From Planctomycetota bacterium (GTDB taxonomy: Bacteria; Planctomycetota; UBA8108; UBA1146), in contig JADHSM010000001.1 in assembly GCA_016776905.1 (NCBI GenBank), positions 45,743 through 109,742 on the forward strand: a stretch of DNA of 64,000 nt. Direction: 5' to 3'. Below the pieces are notes generated by a model. That model saw nothing but the letters and a program-made list of their open reading frames with translations. It ran no database searches and was not told the origin of the DNA. Position numbers and translations under genes: made by a program. How positions within the stretch are numbered: position 1 is the stretch's first letter; each line of letters starts with the position of its first letter. Below, piece after piece: positions 2,529 through 32,864 of the stretch.

Positions 2529-2788
2529 CAGCCTAGCCTCCGTGTCTCAACAAATTTGAGCAGGGCAATGGTGCCGAGGAAGTTGACCAGAGCATAGAGC
2601 ACGGCGATATCAAGAAAACCTGTGCGGTCGCCGATGTAACCCAGAAGAGCCAGAAGGACGACGGTTTTTGTACCAAAGACATTCACCGCGAGAACGCGAT
2701 CAAAAGTAGTGGGACCCTTGACCGCCCTCAGCAAGGCAAGGAATGCTCCTCCGATGACAAGGAGCGCCGTGATCAGTTCGGCATTCAT
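2528..2788 (-). CDS. mrpF: Mrp/Mnh antiporter subunit F
   Basis: 86-aa 3-TM protein, MNAELITALLVIGGAFLALLRAVKGPTTFDRVLAVNVFGTKTVVLLALLGY, matching MnhF/MrpF. Confidence 0.75.
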   Translation of the reverse strand: MNAELITALLVIGGAFLALLRAVKGPTTFDRVLAVNVFGTKTVVLLALLGYIGDRTGFLDIAVLYALVNFLGTIALLKFVETRRLG

Positions 2789-3297
2789 GATGAGGAGGCC
2801 CCCTCGGTGTCTATGGACTCTCCCGAGGTTGGAATCATTTTTTGAATGCGGCTCGTCATCGATCCATCGAGGACACCCTTTTCAGCATCGTCCGTCAGCG
2901 CATGGACCAATAGTTGATCCTCCGTCACGTCGATGGTCACGGTACCTGGGGTCAACGTAATGGAGTTGGCGAGGAGAGTTTGGGCGAGGGGGTGTCGGAT
3001 GGAGTGGGGGACCTTGACCAACCTGGGTTGGATCGAGGACCGGAGACTCCATGAATGCCGGGTCACATCGAGACTGGCGAGTACGATTTGGTAAATCAGC
3101 CAGGGAAGATAGAAAAGGAATCGTGGAATCGATTCGACAGGCTGGTAAACCTCACCGATCAGTCCGAGACGATGGCAACAGAACACTGCGAGAGCTGAAG
3201 AGATCACTCCAGAGCCGACGAGGAATGTGGATTCGAATTGGCCCGAAAGGAGCAACCAGAAGCCGATCAGTGATAGAAGCAATAGTAACGAACGCAA
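2785..3297 (-). CDS. mrpE: Mrp/Mnh antiporter subunit E
   Basis: 170 aa. It has N-terminal TM helices followed by a soluble tail, and its stop overlaps the mrpF start (ATGA). Confidence 0.65.
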   Translation of the reverse strand: MRSLLLLLSLIGFWLLLSGQFESTFLVGSGVISSALAVFCCHRLGLIGEVYQPVESIPRFLFYLPWLIYQIVLASLDVTRHSWSLRSSIQPRLVKVPHSIRHPLAQTLLANSITLTPGTVTIDVTEDQLLVHALTDDAEKGVLDGSMTSRIQKMIPTSGESIDTEGASSS

Positions 3298-3507
3298 GTT
3301 CGGCTGCCTTGTCCATGTCAGTGTGTGAATGTGGTTTTCCGAGATCTGGAAGTGATCACCCTCAGGCCGTCAGCTCCCCAGATACTTCGACTCGAAAGAA
3401 GATGGCATGGTAATTTGCGATTGTCTACCTCTGACCCCAACAGGATTCACTCCCATAGATCAGTCTTGCCGGGTAGTCTTTTGTTTCGAGTCTCGAAAAG
3501 AGAACCG

Positions 3508-4482
3508 ATGCGACGTCGGGCTTGGGTCGAGACTTCAGGAGGCACCTTGGAATTTGAAACATTCGCTGGATTATTAGCAGCGTCATGCTGGGCGACAGGG
3601 AGTTATCTCTTCAGCCGCATGGATGCTCCTGCGATGGCTTTGAATCTCGGGAAAAATATAGTGGCAGGCACACTTCTTGTGATCAGTTTGCCCTTTGCCG
3701 GATTAGGCCTTGAAGTGTGGCTCGATGCCACTGTTCGGGATTTCACCTGGCTCTTTTTGAGTGGAATCGTCGGGATCATGATCGGTGATTCCGCCTACTT
3801 CCGGAGTATCCAAATCCTAGGGCCCCGTCGGGCGTTGGTTTTGACGACTTTGACTCCGCCCGTTTCTGCATTGCTGGGTTGGTTTTGGCTCGCAGAGGTC
3901 CTCCAATCAGGTCAGTTATTGGCGATCTTGGTGACTCTTGTCGGGATTTTCTTGGTGATTCGTGATCAGGATTTGGCTTCTGACCGTGCTCAATGGCGGG
4001 CGGGGAAGCCGGTGGATGGAATAATTCTGGGAATCGTGGCCGCGCTTTGCCAAGCCACAGGCATCGCACTGTCCAAAGTGGTGATGCAATCATCATTGGG
4101 AGCTTTGGAAGTTTCTGCGGTGCGCATTGGCACTGCAGTGGTGGGAGGCGTCGTCTTCGCTGCCTGCACGGGTCAATTGGGCAGTTGGCTCAAGCCGCTT
4201 CGTCGATGGGATTTGTTTCCAGTACTCTTTGTGGCCAGCGCTATCGGAACCTACTTCGGAATCTGGCTGAGTCATATCTCGGTCGATGCCGTGAGTTTAG
4301 CCATTGCAACAACTCAAATGTCGATGACGCCTGTCTTCATGGTGTTGATCGTCGCCATCGCCTTGAGAAAGAAGATCGCACCCTTAGCGTTGGGTGGAAT
4401 CTTACTCGCAGTGGCAGGTGTCGCTTTATTGATGATGCCCGAAGGCGCTTCCCGCTGGCTGGATCAGGTCTTCGGTTTATAG
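3508..4482 (+). CDS. EamA-like (DMT superfamily) transporter
   Basis: 10-TM protein with two EamA-like halves. The internal ATG at 3508 (MRRRAWV...) is more plausible than the ORF-track start at 3325, which overlaps mrpE. Confidence 0.65.
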   Translation: MRRRAWVETSGGTLEFETFAGLLAASCWATGSYLFSRMDAPAMALNLGKNIVAGTLLVISLPFAGLGLEVWLDATVRDFTWLFLSGIVGIMIGDSAYFRSIQILGPRRALVLTTLTPPVSALLGWFWLAEVLQSGQLLAILVTLVGIFLVIRDQDLASDRAQWRAGKPVDGIILGIVAALCQATGIALSKVVMQSSLGALEVSAVRIGTAVVGGVVFAACTGQLGSWLKPLRRWDLFPVLFVASAIGTYFGIWLSHISVDAVSLAIATTQMSMTPVFMVLIVAIALRKKIAPLALGGILLAVAGVALLMMPEGASRWLDQVFGL

Positions 4483-4811: not shown

Positions 4812-5537
4812 TTAGAGGGTCTCCCTCGCTGAATATCTCAGGGCTCTTTTGAGCATTCTTCTCACCATTAAGAGATCTAAGAATGCAGGGATCCCTCTTC
4901 CCAGTGGTGAGTATTTGCTGGTGCCCAACTCTCTGGAGCGATGTGAGACGTCCACCTCCACTGTTCGACCACCTCGCATATGAACGATGTAAGGGAAGAA
5001 GCGATGAAGACCGTTGTAGAGTGTGACGTCTTGAATGATCTCGCGGCGAAAAATCTTTAGCGAGCAACCCACGTCTTGAAATGTGATACCGAGAAGTCGG
5101 TTACGAATCGCATTGGCAGTTTTTTGTGCAAAGGTTCTGATCCAAGGGTCCTGACGTTTTGCCCTGACTCCCAACACAGCATCGACTCCCGGAGTGAGTT
5201 CCATCATGTGTGGAATATCGGCAGGGTCATTCTGGCCGTCTGCGTCCATAGTGATGAGGAACTCTCCGCGTGCCGCAGAGAATCCCGCTTCAAAGGCTGC
5301 GGTTTGTCCACTGTTGGGAACAAGAGTGAGGACCCTTAACCCTGGAGTGGTTTCGCGTCTGCGTTCGAGGAATGCAGGTGTGCCATCGGTTGAGCCGTCG
5401 TCGATGACGATGACTTCAAAAGGGCGATTGAGTTCATTGAGGACGGCGAAAACTTCATCGAGTAAAGGGGGCAGAGCCTCCTCCTCGTTGAATGCGGGAA
5501 TCACCGCGGAAATCTCAATCGTTTCAGCCCGGTTCAC
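4812..5537 (-). CDS. Family 2 glycosyltransferase, polyprenyl-phosphate sugar transferase type (DPM1/ArnC-like)
   Basis: VIPAFNEEEALPP...VIVIDDGSTDGT...ITMDADGQNDP, the GT2 DxD signature. Confidence 0.8.
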   Translation of the reverse strand: MNRAETIEISAVIPAFNEEEALPPLLDEVFAVLNELNRPFEVIVIDDGSTDGTPAFLERRRETTPGLRVLTLVPNSGQTAAFEAGFSAARGEFLITMDADGQNDPADIPHMMELTPGVDAVLGVRAKRQDPWIRTFAQKTANAIRNRLLGITFQDVGCSLKIFRREIIQDVTLYNGLHRFFPYIVHMRGGRTVEVDVSHRSRELGTSKYSPLGRGIPAFLDLLMVRRMLKRALRYSARETL

Positions 5538-5732
5538 GTTTGCCTACCTCTCTGGCTTGACGAAATGTCGGCCGCTCCCGGGATGCTATAGGAGTCATCT
5601 AAATTCAGCAACGAGACCCAGAACATCTCTAAACATCTTCGTGAATTGATCTTAATAGGCCGAATGACTGCACGAGAAGAGACCTGTGTGGAATATCTGC
5701 AGGAAATGCGGCCACCGCATTGTTATTCAGGG

Positions 5733-7247
5733 TTAGCAGGCGTCTAGGACAGTATCGGCAAGAGCTCGACCGAGGTCGCCCTCGACCACTAGACCTGCCA
5801 GATCGACGGGAGCCGGATTGAGCTGGAGTCGAAGTATGTCTTCGGCTTTTCGTTCGTCGTCCACTCTTCGGAATCGAGGGCCCACACCGGCTAAGCGGAG
5901 TCCTTCGGAGATCAGTTGTGCACTCAGATAGCCGCAACCCGGATCGTCCAGCGGCAGGTCAACAAAGATAGTGGCTGCTGAGGCTGAAGTGGTCATTGCA
6001 TTGATCGCAGCTTGAATCCCATCAAAGGCTCCGCTCGTGACCTGATCGAGTGCAATCCAAGCGACTCCTCGCGCGGAATCGAATCGAGTGTGGATAGCCG
6101 AATGACCGTTCACGGGGGGGGGTTGATCGGTCTCGAAGACGATCTCCCTTTGGCGAGCTTGATAGAGGGGATTCAGAATCGGAACGAGTTCGGGGGGGAC
6201 AAACGCTCGAAGCATAGGTTCTTCAGTGAGGGGGTCCCAATATAGAAAACAAGAATGGCGCGCAGATTTGCCCTCACTCTCGCTTTCTCCTGAGACGCCG
6301 CCGCGTAATGAGGCTTCTGCGGGCGTGGTTCCGAGACAAAGTCCAGTGGGGGTGGAGCCAAATTTGAGGTTCATGCGCTGACTGATGGGATGCCGAGCTG
6401 TCGGTTGGCTCCATATGCCCAACAGACCGAGGCGAGCACCCGCGGCTTCTACAGCCGATCGCATCGGCTTCATCAATCCATGGCCTCGATGTCTGTGATC
6501 GATGACGGCTTGCCCGGCTTCGCCGATGGGTTCGAGCTCGGGCCTTTCGAGCGCATAATGCCCGACAATTTCCCCACCCGGAGATTCGCAGATGATCGAG
6601 TGGAGTCTTCCTTCTTGATTCAGTGCATCGATTCGCTCGGGAATATACAAATCCTGATTCGGATAGGAACGCCCATAAGCTTCGTAGATCCGGCGAGCGA
6701 CCTCAAGCCCGTCTCCTTGTCGGTATTCACGGATTTTGTATTCACCGGTTTTGTCAGAAGGCGACGTATCAGCGTGAGCATTCTCCGCTTCTTCACGATC
6801 GAGGCGGTGTCGAACCTCTTCCAAGAGTTCAATCGTAGGATGTTCTCGTTTTACTTTGAGGTGAAGTTCGGATCCCTCGTGTCCTTTTTGGACCCACCAG
6901 AGACGATCGAAGATGGTGTTGGGCCTGATTCGATCAGTGATATCCAAACCGGAGCTTTCAGTGAGGTCTCCTCCCAAAGGAGTTCCATGCTCGAGGATTT
7001 TGAATTCCAGGGCATGGGCGTCTATCGTCACTCCTATTTCGAGTGGAACGATCGTGTCACCTTCATGAGCAAGTGTGCGTTCGATCAGTTCAACACCGCA
7101 AAGAAAAGCCTCGAGTAGGTCTTGTCGACGAGTCCCAGAAAATTCTGCGAGATCGAGTGCTCGACTGGCGAAATCTTGTACCAGAGGTGCGAGTTCTGGG
7201 AGGCCAGGAAGATCGATTTTGAGATCGATTTGATCGGGGGTATTCAT
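5733..7247 (-). CDS. Fusion protein: RsbW/SpoIIAB-like HATPase (anti-sigma Ser kinase-like) N-domain, GNAT acetyltransferase, and a C-terminal domain of unknown function
   Basis: ATG at 7247 has GGAG upstream (MNTPDQIDLK...). The N-terminal 130 aa resemble anti-sigma regulatory kinases. The middle region carries GNAT motifs (LHSIICESPGGEIVGHYALE...VIDHRHRGHGLMKPM). The ORF-track start at 7304 is a TTG reading through a 12-bp tandem duplication. Confidence 0.5.
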   Translation of the reverse strand: MNTPDQIDLKIDLPGLPELAPLVQDFASRALDLAEFSGTRRQDLLEAFLCGVELIERTLAHEGDTIVPLEIGVTIDAHALEFKILEHGTPLGGDLTESSGLDITDRIRPNTIFDRLWWVQKGHEGSELHLKVKREHPTIELLEEVRHRLDREEAENAHADTSPSDKTGEYKIREYRQGDGLEVARRIYEAYGRSYPNQDLYIPERIDALNQEGRLHSIICESPGGEIVGHYALERPELEPIGEAGQAVIDHRHRGHGLMKPMRSAVEAAGARLGLLGIWSQPTARHPISQRMNLKFGSTPTGLCLGTTPAEASLRGGVSGESESEGKSARHSCFLYWDPLTEEPMLRAFVPPELVPILNPLYQARQREIVFETDQPPPVNGHSAIHTRFDSARGVAWIALDQVTSGAFDGIQAAINAMTTSASAATIFVDLPLDDPGCGYLSAQLISEGLRLAGVGPRFRRVDDERKAEDILRLQLNPAPVDLAGLVVEGDLGRALADTVLDAC

Positions 7248-12846: not shown

Positions 12847-14142
12847 TTAACGTGTCAGGCAGGAGGTTCGAAGAATCAATCCCTGACGTTGGCGTGGAAT
12901 TCCGGGAGAATCGGGATTTTTTTTCTGTTGTAGAGCGAGAGCACTGCCCCGAAGTAACAGACCATGACCATGTTGTTCACGAACGCGATCAACCTGAGGT
13001 AATAATTTTTGCCAGTTTGACTGTTGTCGTTTTTGGAAGTGGGATTCTTCGACTCCGATCGCTGCTGGTGGTCCGTCTTCTAAGACCGTAGATGTGTCAT
13101 CGAAAAGAGTTCCTTGCTCTGCGGAGGAGACGGGTTGGATCTTATCGAGGATCAGACCAATGAACCGAATGGCGGTTCTTCTTTTTTGTAGCGTTCGCCT
13201 CAATCGAAGAACAATCCTGATCAGATCAGGGTCGAGTTGGCTGGGGAATTTCAAAGATTCTCGTCGTCGATCGCGAATATGGTCACTGTAGGCGATTTGT
13301 ACCGAGACTCCGCCTGCCATTAATCCACGCTTTCGAAGATCAGAAGCGGCTCTCTCGGTGAGATATTCCAGCATGGCATCCAGAGTTCGTGGGCAAGAAA
13401 CATCCTCATCAAATGAAGTTCCTCGCTGAAGAGTTCGGGGGATTTCTTTGCCACCGATACTGCGATGATCTTCTCCTCGGCAGCGTTGATAAAGTGTTTC
13501 TCCATTCCTTCCGAGAAGGCCTTTCAAAGCTGGGGCTGAAAGTTGTCTCAATTGGGATATGGTCTCGATGCCTAGGCGACCGAGCTTTTCAGTGGTACGA
13601 GGACCGACTCCCGGAAGATCTCCGACCGTCATCGATAGAAGCAGATCTTCTTCATTCTCGGGACGGATGAGTCCTATACCGTTCGGCTTGTGGTCTCGAC
13701 CGATGAGTCTTGCGAACATACGATTTCTTCCCAATCCAACGGTGACGGTCAGCCCTGTGGATTCAGTGACTTCCCGACAGAGGCGTTCTGCTTCGTGGAC
13801 AGGGTTCGGAAATATTCGTCGGGTTCCCGAGAGGTCGCAGTAGGCTTCATCGAGATGTTCTTCGACACGGGGAGATAGCGTTTCACAGATGTCAAAAAGG
13901 CGCCGTGCATAGGCTCGATAGATGGTTTCGCGTCCACGAACGATGATGAGATTTGGGCAACGACGTAGCGCTTTCCCGAGCGGCATTCCTGCACGAAGTC
14001 CGTGTTCCCGAGCTTCATAGGAGCACGAGGCGATGACGCCGCTACCCACGGCAACGGGTTTACCGCTCAGTCGGGGATTTCGAATCTGTTCGACGGAAGC
14101 AAAAAAGGCGTCGATGTCGACGTGTAAGATGAGGGAATCCAT
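12847..14142 (-). CDS. dinB: Y-family DNA polymerase IV (DinB) with a C-terminal extension
   Basis: MDSLILHVDIDAFFASVEQ, LDEAYCDL and SMTVGDLPGVGPRTTEKLGRLGIETI are present. A clamp-binding-like QGTLF is followed by about 90 low-complexity residues. Confidence 0.85.
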   Translation of the reverse strand: MDSLILHVDIDAFFASVEQIRNPRLSGKPVAVGSGVIASCSYEAREHGLRAGMPLGKALRRCPNLIIVRGRETIYRAYARRLFDICETLSPRVEEHLDEAYCDLSGTRRIFPNPVHEAERLCREVTESTGLTVTVGLGRNRMFARLIGRDHKPNGIGLIRPENEEDLLLSMTVGDLPGVGPRTTEKLGRLGIETISQLRQLSAPALKGLLGRNGETLYQRCRGEDHRSIGGKEIPRTLQRGTSFDEDVSCPRTLDAMLEYLTERAASDLRKRGLMAGGVSVQIAYSDHIRDRRRESLKFPSQLDPDLIRIVLRLRRTLQKRRTAIRFIGLILDKIQPVSSAEQGTLFDDTSTVLEDGPPAAIGVEESHFQKRQQSNWQKLLPQVDRVREQHGHGLLLRGSALALQQKKNPDSPGIPRQRQGLILRTSCLTR

Positions 14143-14170: not shown

Positions 14171-14194
14171 CATAGCGAACATCTGTTCGCTATG
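14171..14194. promoter_or_regulatory. Putative LexA operator (Cheo-type CGAAC-N4-GTTCG) upstream of dinB
   Basis: Perfect 24-bp palindrome catagcGAACatctGTTCgctatg, ending 29 bp upstream of the dinB ATG at 14142. Confidence 0.65.
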
Positions 14195-27102: not shown

Positions 27103-27157
27103 GAACGAAATTTTTGAACGGTGATTTGAACGGTGATTTGAACGGTAATTTGAACGG
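27103..27157. repeat. 12-bp tandem repeat (gaacggtgattt), about 4.5 copies, in the 5' region of the HEAT/vWA gene
   Basis: Read directly. A second 12-bp x2 duplication (ctcttctttgct) lies in-frame at 27285-27310. Confidence 0.85.
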
Positions 27158-27164
27158 AATTGGG

Positions 27165-28969: not shown

Positions 28970-29233
28970 CTATTGAAGAAAGAGTCGTTCAATGCGCCAG
29001 CCGGCTTGGGCTTCTTGATAGGCGAGTTCGAGGATGTCTCCAGTATCAACCTCAACCGTAAATCCGTGCAGGGGCGGTTGAAGAGATCTGTCGATCCAGT
29101 GGGAATGGTTTTTTTCCACCTTCAGGAGACGGCGATTCCATAAAATCGATAATATTTCGATACGGTTTGAATGAAATCGAACGATGACCTCTTCCAGAGG
29201 TTCGTCGATAATCTCCTCATGAACTTCGCTCAT
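28970..29233 (-). CDS. Small acidic hypothetical protein translationally coupled to lexA
   Basis: 87 aa. Its ATG overlaps the lexA stop (ATGA). The local GC is lower than its neighbours and I recognise no domain. Confidence 0.3.
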   Translation of the reverse strand: MSEVHEEIIDEPLEEVIVRFHSNRIEILSILWNRRLLKVEKNHSHWIDRSLQPPLHGFTVEVDTGDILELAYQEAQAGWRIERLFLQ

Positions 29234-30006: not shown

Positions 30007-30014
30007 ACACAATG

Positions 30015-30030
30015 GCGAACGAATGTTCGC
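30015..30030. promoter_or_regulatory. Putative LexA operator (Cheo-type) upstream of lexA
   Basis: gCGAACgaatGTTCGc, 58 bp upstream of the lexA ATG. It has the same GCGAAC-N4-GTTCGC core as the dinB site. Confidence 0.6.
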
Positions 30031-30056
30031 ATGTCAAGTCGGGGACTTCGAAGACC

Positions 30057-30678: not shown

Positions 30679-31347
30679 ATGGCTATTTCGAAAATTTTAA
30701 TTCTGGGCAATGGCCCTGAACTGAGGCGTGTGCTCTCTGTTCTTGAAGCCGATCCCGAAAAAGAGTGCGTGGGTTGTGTTTCTTGGAAGGTTTCAGATCC
30801 TTCTAATGAGGCCATAGACCCTAGTCTAGGAATGCACTTCTGGAGGGGGACCGCCGAGACTCTCCAAGAATTGATCGCCGCCCAATCAGCAAAAATCGCA
30901 ATTGCGATCTCTTCCGCTCAAGAACGCTGGAAAGCTCTCAGCCTTCTCAATTCGCTGTCCATAGTTCCAGAGATACTGATCTCCGAAGGTGCAAGTGTCG
31001 ACGACAGTGCCATCATCGGGGCGGGTAGCGTTATCCACCAAGGAGTTATCTTGGAAGAGGGAGTCAGTGTGGGTCACGGGTGTCTCTTATTGCCAGGAAG
31101 TCGTATGGGTGTCGGTTCTCGATGTGGGGACGCCTGTATCATGGAGTCCGGCAGTCAGGTCGAAGATATGGGGCGATTAGGGGACGAGGTTCACCTGGGG
31201 ACTCGTACTGTCGTCTTATCTGAGCGAATTGTCGGCCCAGGATCATTGATTCTTCCCGGATCGATAGTGACTTCAGACGTGGAATCGGGTGTCATTGTGA
31301 GCGGTACCCCGGCGTCTGTGATTGAAAGCTCAACTTCTTCTGAATAG
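30679..31347 (+). CDS. Hexapeptide-repeat sugar N/O-acetyltransferase (NeuD/PglD-like)
   Basis: N-terminal Rossmann-like domain plus a left-handed beta-helix with hexapeptide repeats (IIGAGSVIHQGVILEEGVSVGHGCLL). Confidence 0.6.
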   Translation: MAISKILILGNGPELRRVLSVLEADPEKECVGCVSWKVSDPSNEAIDPSLGMHFWRGTAETLQELIAAQSAKIAIAISSAQERWKALSLLNSLSIVPEILISEGASVDDSAIIGAGSVIHQGVILEEGVSVGHGCLLLPGSRMGVGSRCGDACIMESGSQVEDMGRLGDEVHLGTRTVVLSERIVGPGSLILPGSIVTSDVESGVIVSGTPASVIESSTSSE

Positions 31348-31439
31348 AACACCTGTTCTGCAGATTGAAAGTGAAGAGCAGAAAAGCCAAAGCTGGGGGG
31401 GATATATCCCCATTCGATTTTCCGGGAAGAGAGAGCAAA

Positions 31440-32864
31440 ATGTCTGAGAGTACACCGCATTCTAGCGATGAAGATAGTTCAGGCGAAACGAGCTCAGGAC
31501 TCATCCTGAATACGACAAAAGATCAGGGATATAAACCTCCACGACTCTTTAACGAAATCCTTCCTACTGGAGGAGTGATACGCCGGCGCTGGGAAGATTT
31601 CAGAGTGGAAGAGATTCCTCTCTACACTCCATGCGGTTCTGGAGAGCATCTCTACATAACAATAGAGAAGCGAAACAGAACTACACTTCAAGCTCGAAAT
31701 CATCTCGCGAGGGTATTTGAAGTCTCACCGGACGATGTCGGGTTCGCAGGTTTCAAAGATAAACGTGCCATCACTACACAGACTTTTTCTCTCCCTGTTC
31801 TTTCTGATACAAAAGTTAAAGATGTCGAAGAGCATTGGATAGAAGTCAAGGAAGTCCAGAGACACAAAAATAAGATTCGTACGGGGCATCTTGAGGGAAA
31901 TCGATTTGAAATCCTGATCAGGGAAACTCGTGAAGATTGCCTTGAAGATGTCACTAAGATTCTTTCAAAGATTGCTCTGCATGGGCTTCCCAATTTTTAT
32001 GGACCTCAGCGATTTGGCATCCATGGAGATGGCGCAAAAGTAGGTTCTGCTTTGCTCCGGAGAAAAATTGACAAGGCCCTCGATTTGCTATTGGCCCCAA
32101 GTGAAGGCATCGTTGAGGAATACCGGGACGCTTACGCCGCTGGTGATATTCAACAAGCTCTGCAGCTTTTGCCCCCGGGAAGAAACACAGAGTTGGCGAT
32201 GCTGAAATCGCTGCGTTCTCACCCTGATAATATGCGTGCCGCTGCAAGACGGATTCCTAGACCGCTTCGGAAAATGTACTACTCAGCTTATCAGTCAGAA
32301 CTTTTCAACTGGGTTCTTATCGAACGAATGGATCGATCTCCTGATGCATATCATTCGCCATGGGCGGGTGATATTTGCCAGTTAGAGGGAAGAAGATCAA
32401 GGTTTCATGTTGATCTGGATCCCGTGGCCCATCAGATAGAGGTGGAACGCGCAGCAGCGGGGGAGGTGTCTCCCACAGGACCGATATTTGGTCGAAAGAT
32501 GAAACCACCACTCGGGCTCGCAGGTGATGTTGAAATGGCGATTTTGGAAGCAGAAGGATTAAGAGCGGAGTCGTGGCTCTCTCATGTGAGAGGTCTTGAT
32601 CTGGATGGGTCGAGAAGGCCGCTGAGAGTTTCTGTTGGCGATCCTGAAGCCAGTTGGCACAAAGGTGAAGAGGGAGAGGAAGGGTTGATGATCAAGTTCT
32701 CGCTGCCAGCGGGCTCATTTGCCACCACGCTCCTTGATCAGATCATGGGCCCGGAAGTCTCCCGAGTCGAAGTCGACTCGGGAGACTCCCGTGAGTTGGA
32801 GTCGCAAGACTCCCGTGAGTTGGAGTCGCAAGACTCCTGTGAGTTGGAGTCGCAAGACTCCTGA
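31440..32864 (+). CDS. truD: tRNA pseudouridine(13) synthase TruD with a repetitive C-terminal tail
   Basis: AGFKDKRAITTQ holds the catalytic Asp motif. ATG at 31440 follows GGGAAGAGAG. The C-terminus carries (DSRELESQ)x3. Confidence 0.75.
   Translation: MSESTPHSSDEDSSGETSSGLILNTTKDQGYKPPRLFNEILPTGGVIRRRWEDFRVEEIPLYTPCGSGEHLYITIEKRNRTTLQARNHLARVFEVSPDDVGFAGFKDKRAITTQTFSLPVLSDTKVKDVEEHWIEVKEVQRHKNKIRTGHLEGNRFEILIRETREDCLEDVTKILSKIALHGLPNFYGPQRFGIHGDGAKVGSALLRRKIDKALDLLLAPSEGIVEEYRDAYAAGDIQQALQLLPPGRNTELAMLKSLRSHPDNMRAAARRIPRPLRKMYYSAYQSELFNWVLIERMDRSPDAYHSPWAGDICQLEGRRSRFHVDLDPVAHQIEVERAAAGEVSPTGPIFGRKMKPPLGLAGDVEMAILEAEGLRAESWLSHVRGLDLDGSRRPLRVSVGDPEASWHKGEEGEEGLMIKFSLPAGSFATTLLDQIMGPEVSRVEVDSGDSRELESQDSRELESQDSCELESQDS
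32761..32864. repeat. 22-bp perfect palindrome, then a 24-bp x3.4 in-frame tandem repeat at the truD 3' end
   Basis: cccgagtcgaagtcgactcggg, followed by (gactcccgtgagttggagtcgcaa)x3 up to the stop codon. Confidence 0.85.

Follow-up and report, generated by a model that had tools for sequence, protein, structure and literature searches.

Aravind, Anand and Iyer described ImuB-C in 2013: an all-beta domain, some 80 residues long, in which a C-terminal tryptophan and two basic residues are conserved and which occurs either at the end of ImuB or as a standalone protein (PMC3765255). Gene contexts without a polymerase were published for it as well, with Ku/ligase, SplB photolyase and SRAP genes (PMC3765255). 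The arrangement lexA-imuB-C-polY was named by Timinskas and Venclovas in 2019 and has already been reported for Planctomycetes; in Geobacter sulfurreducens it is damage-induced and forms one transcription unit, imuA is absent from the genomes that carry it, and a complex of PolY, RecA and ImuB-C has been proposed for it (PMC6511836). [quoted passage not shown]

ImuB-C is nevertheless the least understood module of the bacterial mutasomes; its proposed task there is to keep DnaE2 or Y-family polymerases within the complexes that carry out SOS mutagenesis. To our knowledge, there has been no biochemical study of a standalone ImuB-C. The gene analyzed here lies directly downstream of lexA in a 64-kb stretch of planctomycetotal DNA (the whole of which is referred to as the window), and its product is, with high confidence, a standalone ImuB-C under LexA control. 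The fuller explanation, in which lexA and imuB-C form a LexA-repressed pair, ImuB-C is an accessory subunit of a Y-family polymerase encoded elsewhere in the window, and the published module has been split, is considered likely as a whole.

The locus most resembles the GeoPolY-like lexA-imuB-C-polY systems (type Geobacter sulfurreducens GSU0042), which are known from delta-proteobacteria as well as Deferribacteres and Planctomycetes (PMC3765255, PMC6511836). In both, an all-beta protein of about 80-87 aa directly follows lexA and displays a conserved Trp and Arg pattern, the DinB-like PolY is catalytically intact by its residues and bears a clamp motif together with a C-terminal motif of putative RecA-NT-like type, and no imuA is seen nearby. 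However, in the whole marine clade to which the window belongs the polymerase lies outside the operon, the polY of the window being 15 kb away with a predicted LexA box of its own, and the window sequence is too divergent for a direct match to the Pfam family DUF6504 (PF20114). Moreover, lexA and imuB-C are separated by spacers of 45-69 bp at other Planctomycetota loci, whereas they overlap by four bases here.

Homology to the C-terminus of ImuB in the ImuA-ImuB-DnaE2 mutasomes is indicated by the DUF6504 model, and hhalign places the family, at weak scores, on ImuB residues 403-489. Yet the ImuB-C of the window is free-standing rather than fused to an inactive Y-family polymerase, neither imuA nor dnaE2 was found in the 64-kb window by tblastn, and activity is predicted for the partner polymerase. 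The Deinococcus cassette lexA-imuY-imuB-C-dnaE2 (PMC8072749) is likewise an operon controlled by LexA in which a standalone ImuB-C of 80 residues is encoded, LexA control being a prediction in the present case. That cassette includes the inactive polymerase ImuY and DnaE2, with imuB-C placed after the polymerase gene, whereas the imuB-C of the window follows lexA and no dnaE2 is seen; two related Planctomycetota loci, L019 and L028, do carry imuB-C-polY-dnaE2 (in L028 together with DUF72). Finally, UmuD' of Pol V and YolD/YqjX offer a possible functional analogy, as small, SOS-induced, beta-rich accessories of a Y-family polymerase (PMC6511836, PMC12926913), but not homology: the 87-aa protein matches neither the S24 peptidase nor the YolD model, and a fold search retrieved nothing UmuD- or SH3-like.

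A small gene overlapping lexA

The positions of the features discussed are collected in Table 1. Plus-strand bases 29230-29233 read TCAT, giving ATGA on the minus strand, so that the ATG of the small ORF (29233..29231) and the TGA of lexA (29232..29230) overlap by four bases. The identity of lexA is secure, with a score of 130.6 bits against the NCBIfam model TIGR00498 (cut-off 110.95) and additional matches to Pfam Peptidase_S24 and LexA_DNA_bind. The encoded 87-aa protein is acidic (pI 5.1; 16 D+E versus 9 K+R) and, read by eye, contains no hydrophobic run of membrane-helix length, while the GC content across the ORF is about 0.46-0.47 versus 0.53-0.55 in lexA. The original prediction, made from the DNA letters, had reported each of these features, namely the 87-aa ORF starting on the lexA stop, the acidic product without a transmembrane segment, and the dip in GC, and all agree with the coordinates, the TIGR00498 match and the composition given here. 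Its general reading, a small protein co-regulated with the SOS response, also holds, given the shared orientation, the four-base overlap and a conserved predicted LexA-box promoter.

Table 1. Positions of the principal features in the window
Feature	Position	Strand	Basis
imuB-C, 87-aa standalone ImuB-C (DUF6504-like) protein, predicted 7-strand beta-barrel	28970..29233	-	ORF, homologues, selection, profile link, AF2
lexA, 242 aa	29230..29958	-	TIGR00498, Peptidase_S24, LexA_DNA_bind; TGA stop shared with the imuB-C ATG
Stem-loop in the lexA 5' leader, 10-bp stem perfectly paired, 8-nt loop	29980..30007	-	100% complementary; between promoter and start codon
Putative sigma-70-type promoter: TTGACA 30037..30032, 17-nt spacer, CATTGT 30014..30009	30009..30037	-	Read from sequence
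Predicted LexA box CGAACATTCGTTCG, palindromic GAAC-N4-GTTC type	30016..30029	.	Pattern count; conservation upstream of lexA
Y-family (DinB/Pol IV-like) polymerase, unlinked partner candidate	12847..14142	-	tblastn, Pfam IMS + IMS_HHH_1 + IMS_C, alignment
Predicted LexA box CGAACAGATGTTCG before the polymerase gene	14176..14189	.	Pattern search

A length of 87 codons does not by itself exceed chance, and many spurious ORFs of the same size overlap the region. Conservation in relatives, which the original prediction had put forward as a check, is therefore the decisive evidence, and the ORF was found downstream of lexA in related genomes, with its frame intact and in synteny. Among 5.8 billion proteins searched, five clusters matched, each of exactly 87 aa and 64-99% identical, and a scan of species-representative genomes returned seven loci, all from marine Planctomycetota or Planctomycetia MAGs or from unclassified MAGs; full-length homologues of 87 aa span 63-100% identity. 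At the nearest locus, CALJGL010000004.1, the ORF is 100% identical, LexA 96% and the downstream neighbor 94%. The order queF, lexA, ORF, and then a convergent HEAT/VWA gene is retained. Between lineages, pN is 0.11-0.23 and pS 0.64-0.91 per site, synonymous sites being near saturation, and nine distinct marine Planctomycetota sequences retain the ATGA overlap even though the preceding 30 nt have diverged.

This substitution pattern indicates that the ORF is under strong purifying selection, and the homologues of constant length, the retained overlap and the pN and pS values together establish it, on comparative grounds, as a real gene. The earlier suggestion that it might be a spurious frame in the 3' region of lexA could appeal to the missing database match of the 87-aa protein, to the lower GC content, and to the lack of a Shine-Dalgarno sequence, none being present upstream of either the imuB-C or the lexA ATG. 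It is contradicted by the preservation of frame, length and start at 63-69% amino acid identity with synonymous sites near saturation, and also by a wider family of 46 cluster representatives and a confident AF2 model, and can practically be dismissed.

Beyond imuB-C, the convergent HEAT/VWA gene follows after a gap of 41 bp that has no clear terminator, and no operon terminator was detected by a consensus terminator scan. The longest reading of the HEAT/VWA ORF opens with NGDL/NGNL repeats (27114-27160) that precede the region to which homologues align, the matches starting at residues 18-81. Because these matches begin only after the repeats, the true start of the gene is probably further downstream. 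A separate repeat is present in the TruD-like ORF at 31365-32864, the 3' end of which encodes a tandem peptide repeat, SRELESQDS, in three copies, one of them variant.

Relationship to the ImuB C-terminal domain

The 87-aa protein has no direct match among the Pfam, NCBIfam (E ≤ 1), PHROG or PADLOC models. The 46 cluster representatives, mostly of 80-87 aa and about 83 aa in length, were gathered by an exhaustive HMM search with a six-sequence profile of the close clade, and 33 of the 50 aligned family members match Pfam DUF6504 at E ≤ 0.1. Members P0013, P0051, P0052, P0058 and P0079 exceed the gathering score of that model (25.3-27.0 bits versus 24.2) over nearly its whole length, and P0013 is reached by the close-clade profile at E 6.2e-9. 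The DUF6504 model in turn matches C-terminal residues 415-488 of a true ImuB, encoded by a Caulobacter plasmid in a cassette annotated as imuA-imuB-dnaE2, at 32.2 bits, which is above its cut-off. Because DUF6504 matches the C-terminus of ImuB, it can be equated with the domain that Aravind et al. (2013) called ImuB-C; a full-text search found no papers under the name DUF6504.

Direct comparison with ImuB is weaker. Using hhalign, the family alignment matched one ImuB over residues 403-489 at E 0.0032, with a weak probability of 10%, and six ImuB C-termini at E 0.0024, with a similarly weak 12%; these alignments land on the C-terminal region of ImuB and align both conserved tryptophans. A search of six ImuB proteins by hmmsearch with the family profiles gave at most 7.3 bits, near noise. 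Since the window protein has no DUF6504 match and the direct comparisons with ImuB are weak, membership is reached by a transitive chain.

The residues conserved in the family accord with this assignment. Across the 50 aligned sequences, conservation is seen at W32, R35, V39, W46, R49, F58, G65-D66 and W79, with W79 present in 47 of 50 members (94%), W46 in 48 of 50, and K or R at position 35 in 88% and at position 49 in 82%. The hallmarks of ImuB-C are thus found in the family: a C-terminal tryptophan (W79), two basic residues (R35 and R49), and an all-beta structure. Conservation falls on Trp, Phe, Arg, Gly and aliphatic residues, without a catalytic residue pattern. Judged from sequence, then, the 87-aa protein is a divergent member of the ImuB-C family described in 2013 and not a new kind of SOS effector, the main grounds for this assignment being the transitive link through Pfam, the hallmark residues and the genomic neighborhood. 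The original prediction, which had recognized no domain and allowed for a novel effector, is superseded on this point by the profile chain to DUF6504.

The predicted structure is in agreement. With the 50-sequence alignment, AF2 returned an all-beta barrel of seven strands and no helix at a pLDDT of 92.9; the alignment of six close sequences had given an unusable model (pLDDT 54), and the larger one was used instead. A PDB sequence search with the family profile produced a single chance match (E 0.49), and a fold search recovered no UmuD or SH3-like relatives and no known DNA-binding fold. No close relative of the fold was found among solved structures, as has been described for ImuB-C, and the barrel agrees with the published description (PMC12926913).

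Both the structure and the homology bear on the earlier proposal that the protein is an SOS-induced division inhibitor like SulA, YneA, SidA or DivS. That proposal draws on the position in a LexA-controlled operon and on small size, and on nothing further. The 87-aa protein has neither a SulA domain, nor the LysM domain and membrane anchor of YneA, nor the character of a small hydrophobic membrane peptide such as SidA/DidA, and no membrane segment, LysM, SulA or other Pfam or NCBIfam match was obtained at E ≤ 1. Instead, the prediction for it is a soluble all-beta barrel, it shares homology with a domain of the mutasome subunit ImuB, and its gene is linked to translesion polymerase genes in distant relatives, so that the analogy with division inhibitors fails and a role of this type is highly improbable.

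One family member recovered by the profile search, P0007 (130 aa), combines an ArsR-type HTH (Pfam HTH_5, E 2e-12) with the last 57 residues of an ImuB-C domain, the latter close to the marine-clade sequence. This could be a real HTH-ImuB-C fusion, or else a deletion or assembly artefact joining a regulator gene to imuB-C.

The original proposal for the domain was that ImuB-C acts mainly as a sensor that binds damaged DNA, detects lesions or stalled structures, and recruits repair or translesion enzymes, rather than as a stoichiometric polymerase subunit (PMC3765255). The two strongly conserved basic residues, in the absence of a catalytic pattern, are consistent with such a function, as are the published contexts without a polymerase (PMC3765255) and the DNA-binding HTH fused in P0007. 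Conversely, the window protein, at pI 5.1, is unfavorably acidic for DNA binding (the family median is 7.9), no known DNA-binding fold was recovered, and the later AlphaFold models place ImuB-C at interfaces with the DnaE2 PHP domain and with ImuA (PMC12926913). A sensor role is accordingly regarded as unlikely for the window protein, and its assignment as an accessory to a polymerase is preferred.

Y-family polymerases in relatives and in the window

The accessory role is suggested by the neighborhood of the gene outside the marine clade. In L015/L016, L017/L018 and L020 the order is lexA, small gene, Y-family polymerase gene. The small gene is followed by polY and a dnaE2-like gene in L019, and by polY, DUF72 and a dnaE2-like gene in L028; in L029 it is followed by polY, the contig starting 475 nt upstream of the small gene. 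In L030, on a low-coverage contig, it lies near a fragmentary IMS_C gene. The small gene is thus found just upstream of a Y-family polymerase gene in eight distant lineages, that of L030 being called from the IMS_C fragment only, and among these eight lexA is upstream in three and dnaE2 downstream in two. In distant relatives, the polymerase is the constant neighbor of imuB-C and lexA a frequent one. A constant polymerase partner points to damage tolerance and mutagenesis, and not to cell-cycle arrest.

In the imuB-C-linked polymerases, the DxD and DE residues needed for catalysis are preserved, as are a clamp-type motif QxxLF and a C-terminal VDxxRxxxG. The possibility that the Y-family genes adjacent to imuB-C encode inactive ImuB-like proteins was considered and is ruled out by the intact DxD and DE residues.

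DUF72 genes recur in these cassettes. In L028, on a Planctomycetota contig with the order imuB-C-polY-DUF72-dnaE2, the gene (5445-6356) lies between polY and dnaE2. In L022, on a Desulfosarcina plasmid without imuB-C, a DUF72 gene (1991-2797) is flanked by lexA and a Y-family-like gene and precedes a dnaE-like gene.

In the marine clade, no polymerase gene was found within ±8 kb of imuB-C. The 64-kb window holds one Y-family polymerase, about 15 kb from imuB-C, and in tblastn searches with the imuB-C-linked polymerases this window PolY is most like the L019 polymerase (36% identity, 279 bits). The NCBIfam Pol IV models match it below their cut-offs. By alignment, its catalytic residues D9, D11, D98 and E99 are intact, and catalysis is accordingly predicted. 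The protein also shares with the imuB-C-linked polymerases a clamp-type motif, QGTLF, and a C-terminal VDxVRxxxG; the latter has no Pfam DUF4113 match, and its RecA-NT-like label is taken from the description in the literature.

The window PolY and the dnaE2-linked polymerase of L019 have in common an extra C-terminal tail (GLILRTSCLTR versus GYILRTPSLTK), which is absent from the lexA-linked polymerases of L015, L017 and L020. The tail hints that the window PolY may belong to a dnaE2-associated subgroup, though no dnaE2 is present in the 64-kb window.

The full lexA-imuB-C-polY operon is therefore absent at the window locus: lexA and imuB-C are there, and the polymerase gene is not next to them. 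It thus appears that the module has been split in the marine clade, with lexA and imuB-C remaining together and polY having moved away. The same facts can be read differently, with the marine-clade protein working with LexA itself by tuning its cleavage, its DNA binding or the set-point of the SOS response. The ATGA overlap, kept in all nine marine-clade sequences despite diverged flanks, would suit such a partnership, as would the absence of a polymerase gene within ±8 kb and the presence of lexA immediately upstream in three other lineages. However, L019 and L028 combine imuB-C with polY and have no adjacent lexA; L029 too has polY directly next, although its contig starts 475 nt upstream and lexA could lie there. 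The constant neighbor is the polymerase and not LexA, and ImuB carries the domain as a fusion to a polymerase-like protein. Furthermore, retention of the pair is already explained by imuB-C staying behind a LexA-controlled promoter, and a function directed at LexA is judged improbable. A broader variant, in which marine-clade ImuB-C is made in fixed proportion to LexA and either acts on LexA/RecA to adjust the SOS set-point or serves as an adaptor shared by several LexA-regulated repair enzymes rather than being dedicated to one polymerase, would also be doubtful, if slightly less so.

Predicted LexA control and proposed role

A LexA-boxed promoter upstream of lexA was part of the original prediction, and it is borne out as a sequence feature by a CGAAC-N4-GTTCG palindrome in the spacer between -35 and -10, a motif that occurs three times in the 64-kb window versus 0.10 expected, a count reached in none of 100 shuffles. 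The minus-strand sequence upstream of lexA reads cTTGACAtgCGAACATTCGTTCGcCATTGTg, in which the box (30029..30016) fills the 17-nt spacer between a consensus -35 (TTGACA) and a weak -10 (CATTGT). A stricter consensus promoter scan missed this promoter. Nonetheless, the element GAAC-N4-GTTCGCCA is kept upstream of lexA in eight related loci, and the architecture TTGAC(A/T)-N3-GAAC-N4-GTTCGC-CAT(C/T)(C/G)T is common to all eight related loci that include the lexA promoter region. The GAAC-N4-GTTC type is the LexA motif of Firmicutes and Actinobacteria, and as of 2016 the SOS response was undocumented for the PVC superphylum, Planctomycetes included (PMC4951493).

The polymerase gene is preceded by the same motif. 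There, the box is enclosed in an 18-bp palindrome, AGCGAACAGATGTTCGCT, and its core ends 33 nt upstream of the ATG. With CGAAC-N4-GTTCG predicted from sequence in both promoters, polY would fall in the same LexA regulon as lexA-imuB-C. As no polymerase is found within ±8 kb, the functional link between imuB-C and the window PolY rests on this shared predicted control and on homology to the linked partners.

Under the proposed mechanism, which follows established SOS biology in its regulation, LexA would repress both the lexA-imuB-C and the polY promoters, and DNA damage would induce both through RecA-stimulated self-cleavage of LexA. Ribosomes terminating on lexA could then re-initiate at the overlapping ATG to produce ImuB-C, which would serve as a non-catalytic accessory subunit of the LexA-boxed Y-family polymerase and, together with RecA and the beta clamp, probably assemble or direct a translesion-synthesis complex. 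Drawn from gene context and published modelling, this specific accessory-subunit role for ImuB-C is given a somewhat better than even chance.

The current picture of SOS biology is unchanged by the locus. What it adds is a divergent marine Planctomycetota branch of ImuB-C that is missed by the current Pfam and NCBIfam models, and an indication that lexA and imuB-C can remain a tightly coupled pair once the polymerase gene, its predicted LexA box kept, is no longer in the operon. It also supplies a predicted GAAC-N4-GTTC LexA motif and a minimal predicted SOS regulon for Planctomycetota.

Further sites of this type occur in the window. The third perfect CGAAC-N4-GTTCG site, CGAACGCAAGTTCG at 3289-3302, overlaps the beginning of a minus-strand gene (2785..3297) for an MnhE-type Na+/H+ antiporter subunit; the divergent gene on the plus strand (3325..4482), which encodes an EamA-family transporter, has the site 23 nt upstream. 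These two are not among the classical SOS genes, and the site may be a chance occurrence or mark an unexpected member of the regulon. A palindrome with a GAAC-N4-GTTC core and A/T flanks, AGAACACCTGTTCT, is located at 31346-31359, in the interval from the stop codon of a hexapeptide-repeat gene (30679..31347) to the point where truD (31365..32864) begins, and is also present in the close relative L008, at 5874.

The lexA leader contains a perfect stem, the arms of which are TGAAAGCCCC...GGGGCTTTCA, with no T-run following; it is found in the closest relative, L008, as well. In L005, L011, L012 and L014, GC hairpins of unrelated sequence were seen by eye at the same leader position (for example GTCGC-ttcg-GCGAC), which suggests that a leader structure is conserved across lineages. 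Short tandem repeats occur in the leader or N-terminal region of lexA in two relatives, L001 (about 5120-5220, 'cactggcctgagaga' in at least four copies) and L013 (about 7100-7160, 'ctcactgtgcttct' in three copies), and are absent from the window; such repeats may explain the variable N-termini called for LexA, with lengths of 224-261 aa.
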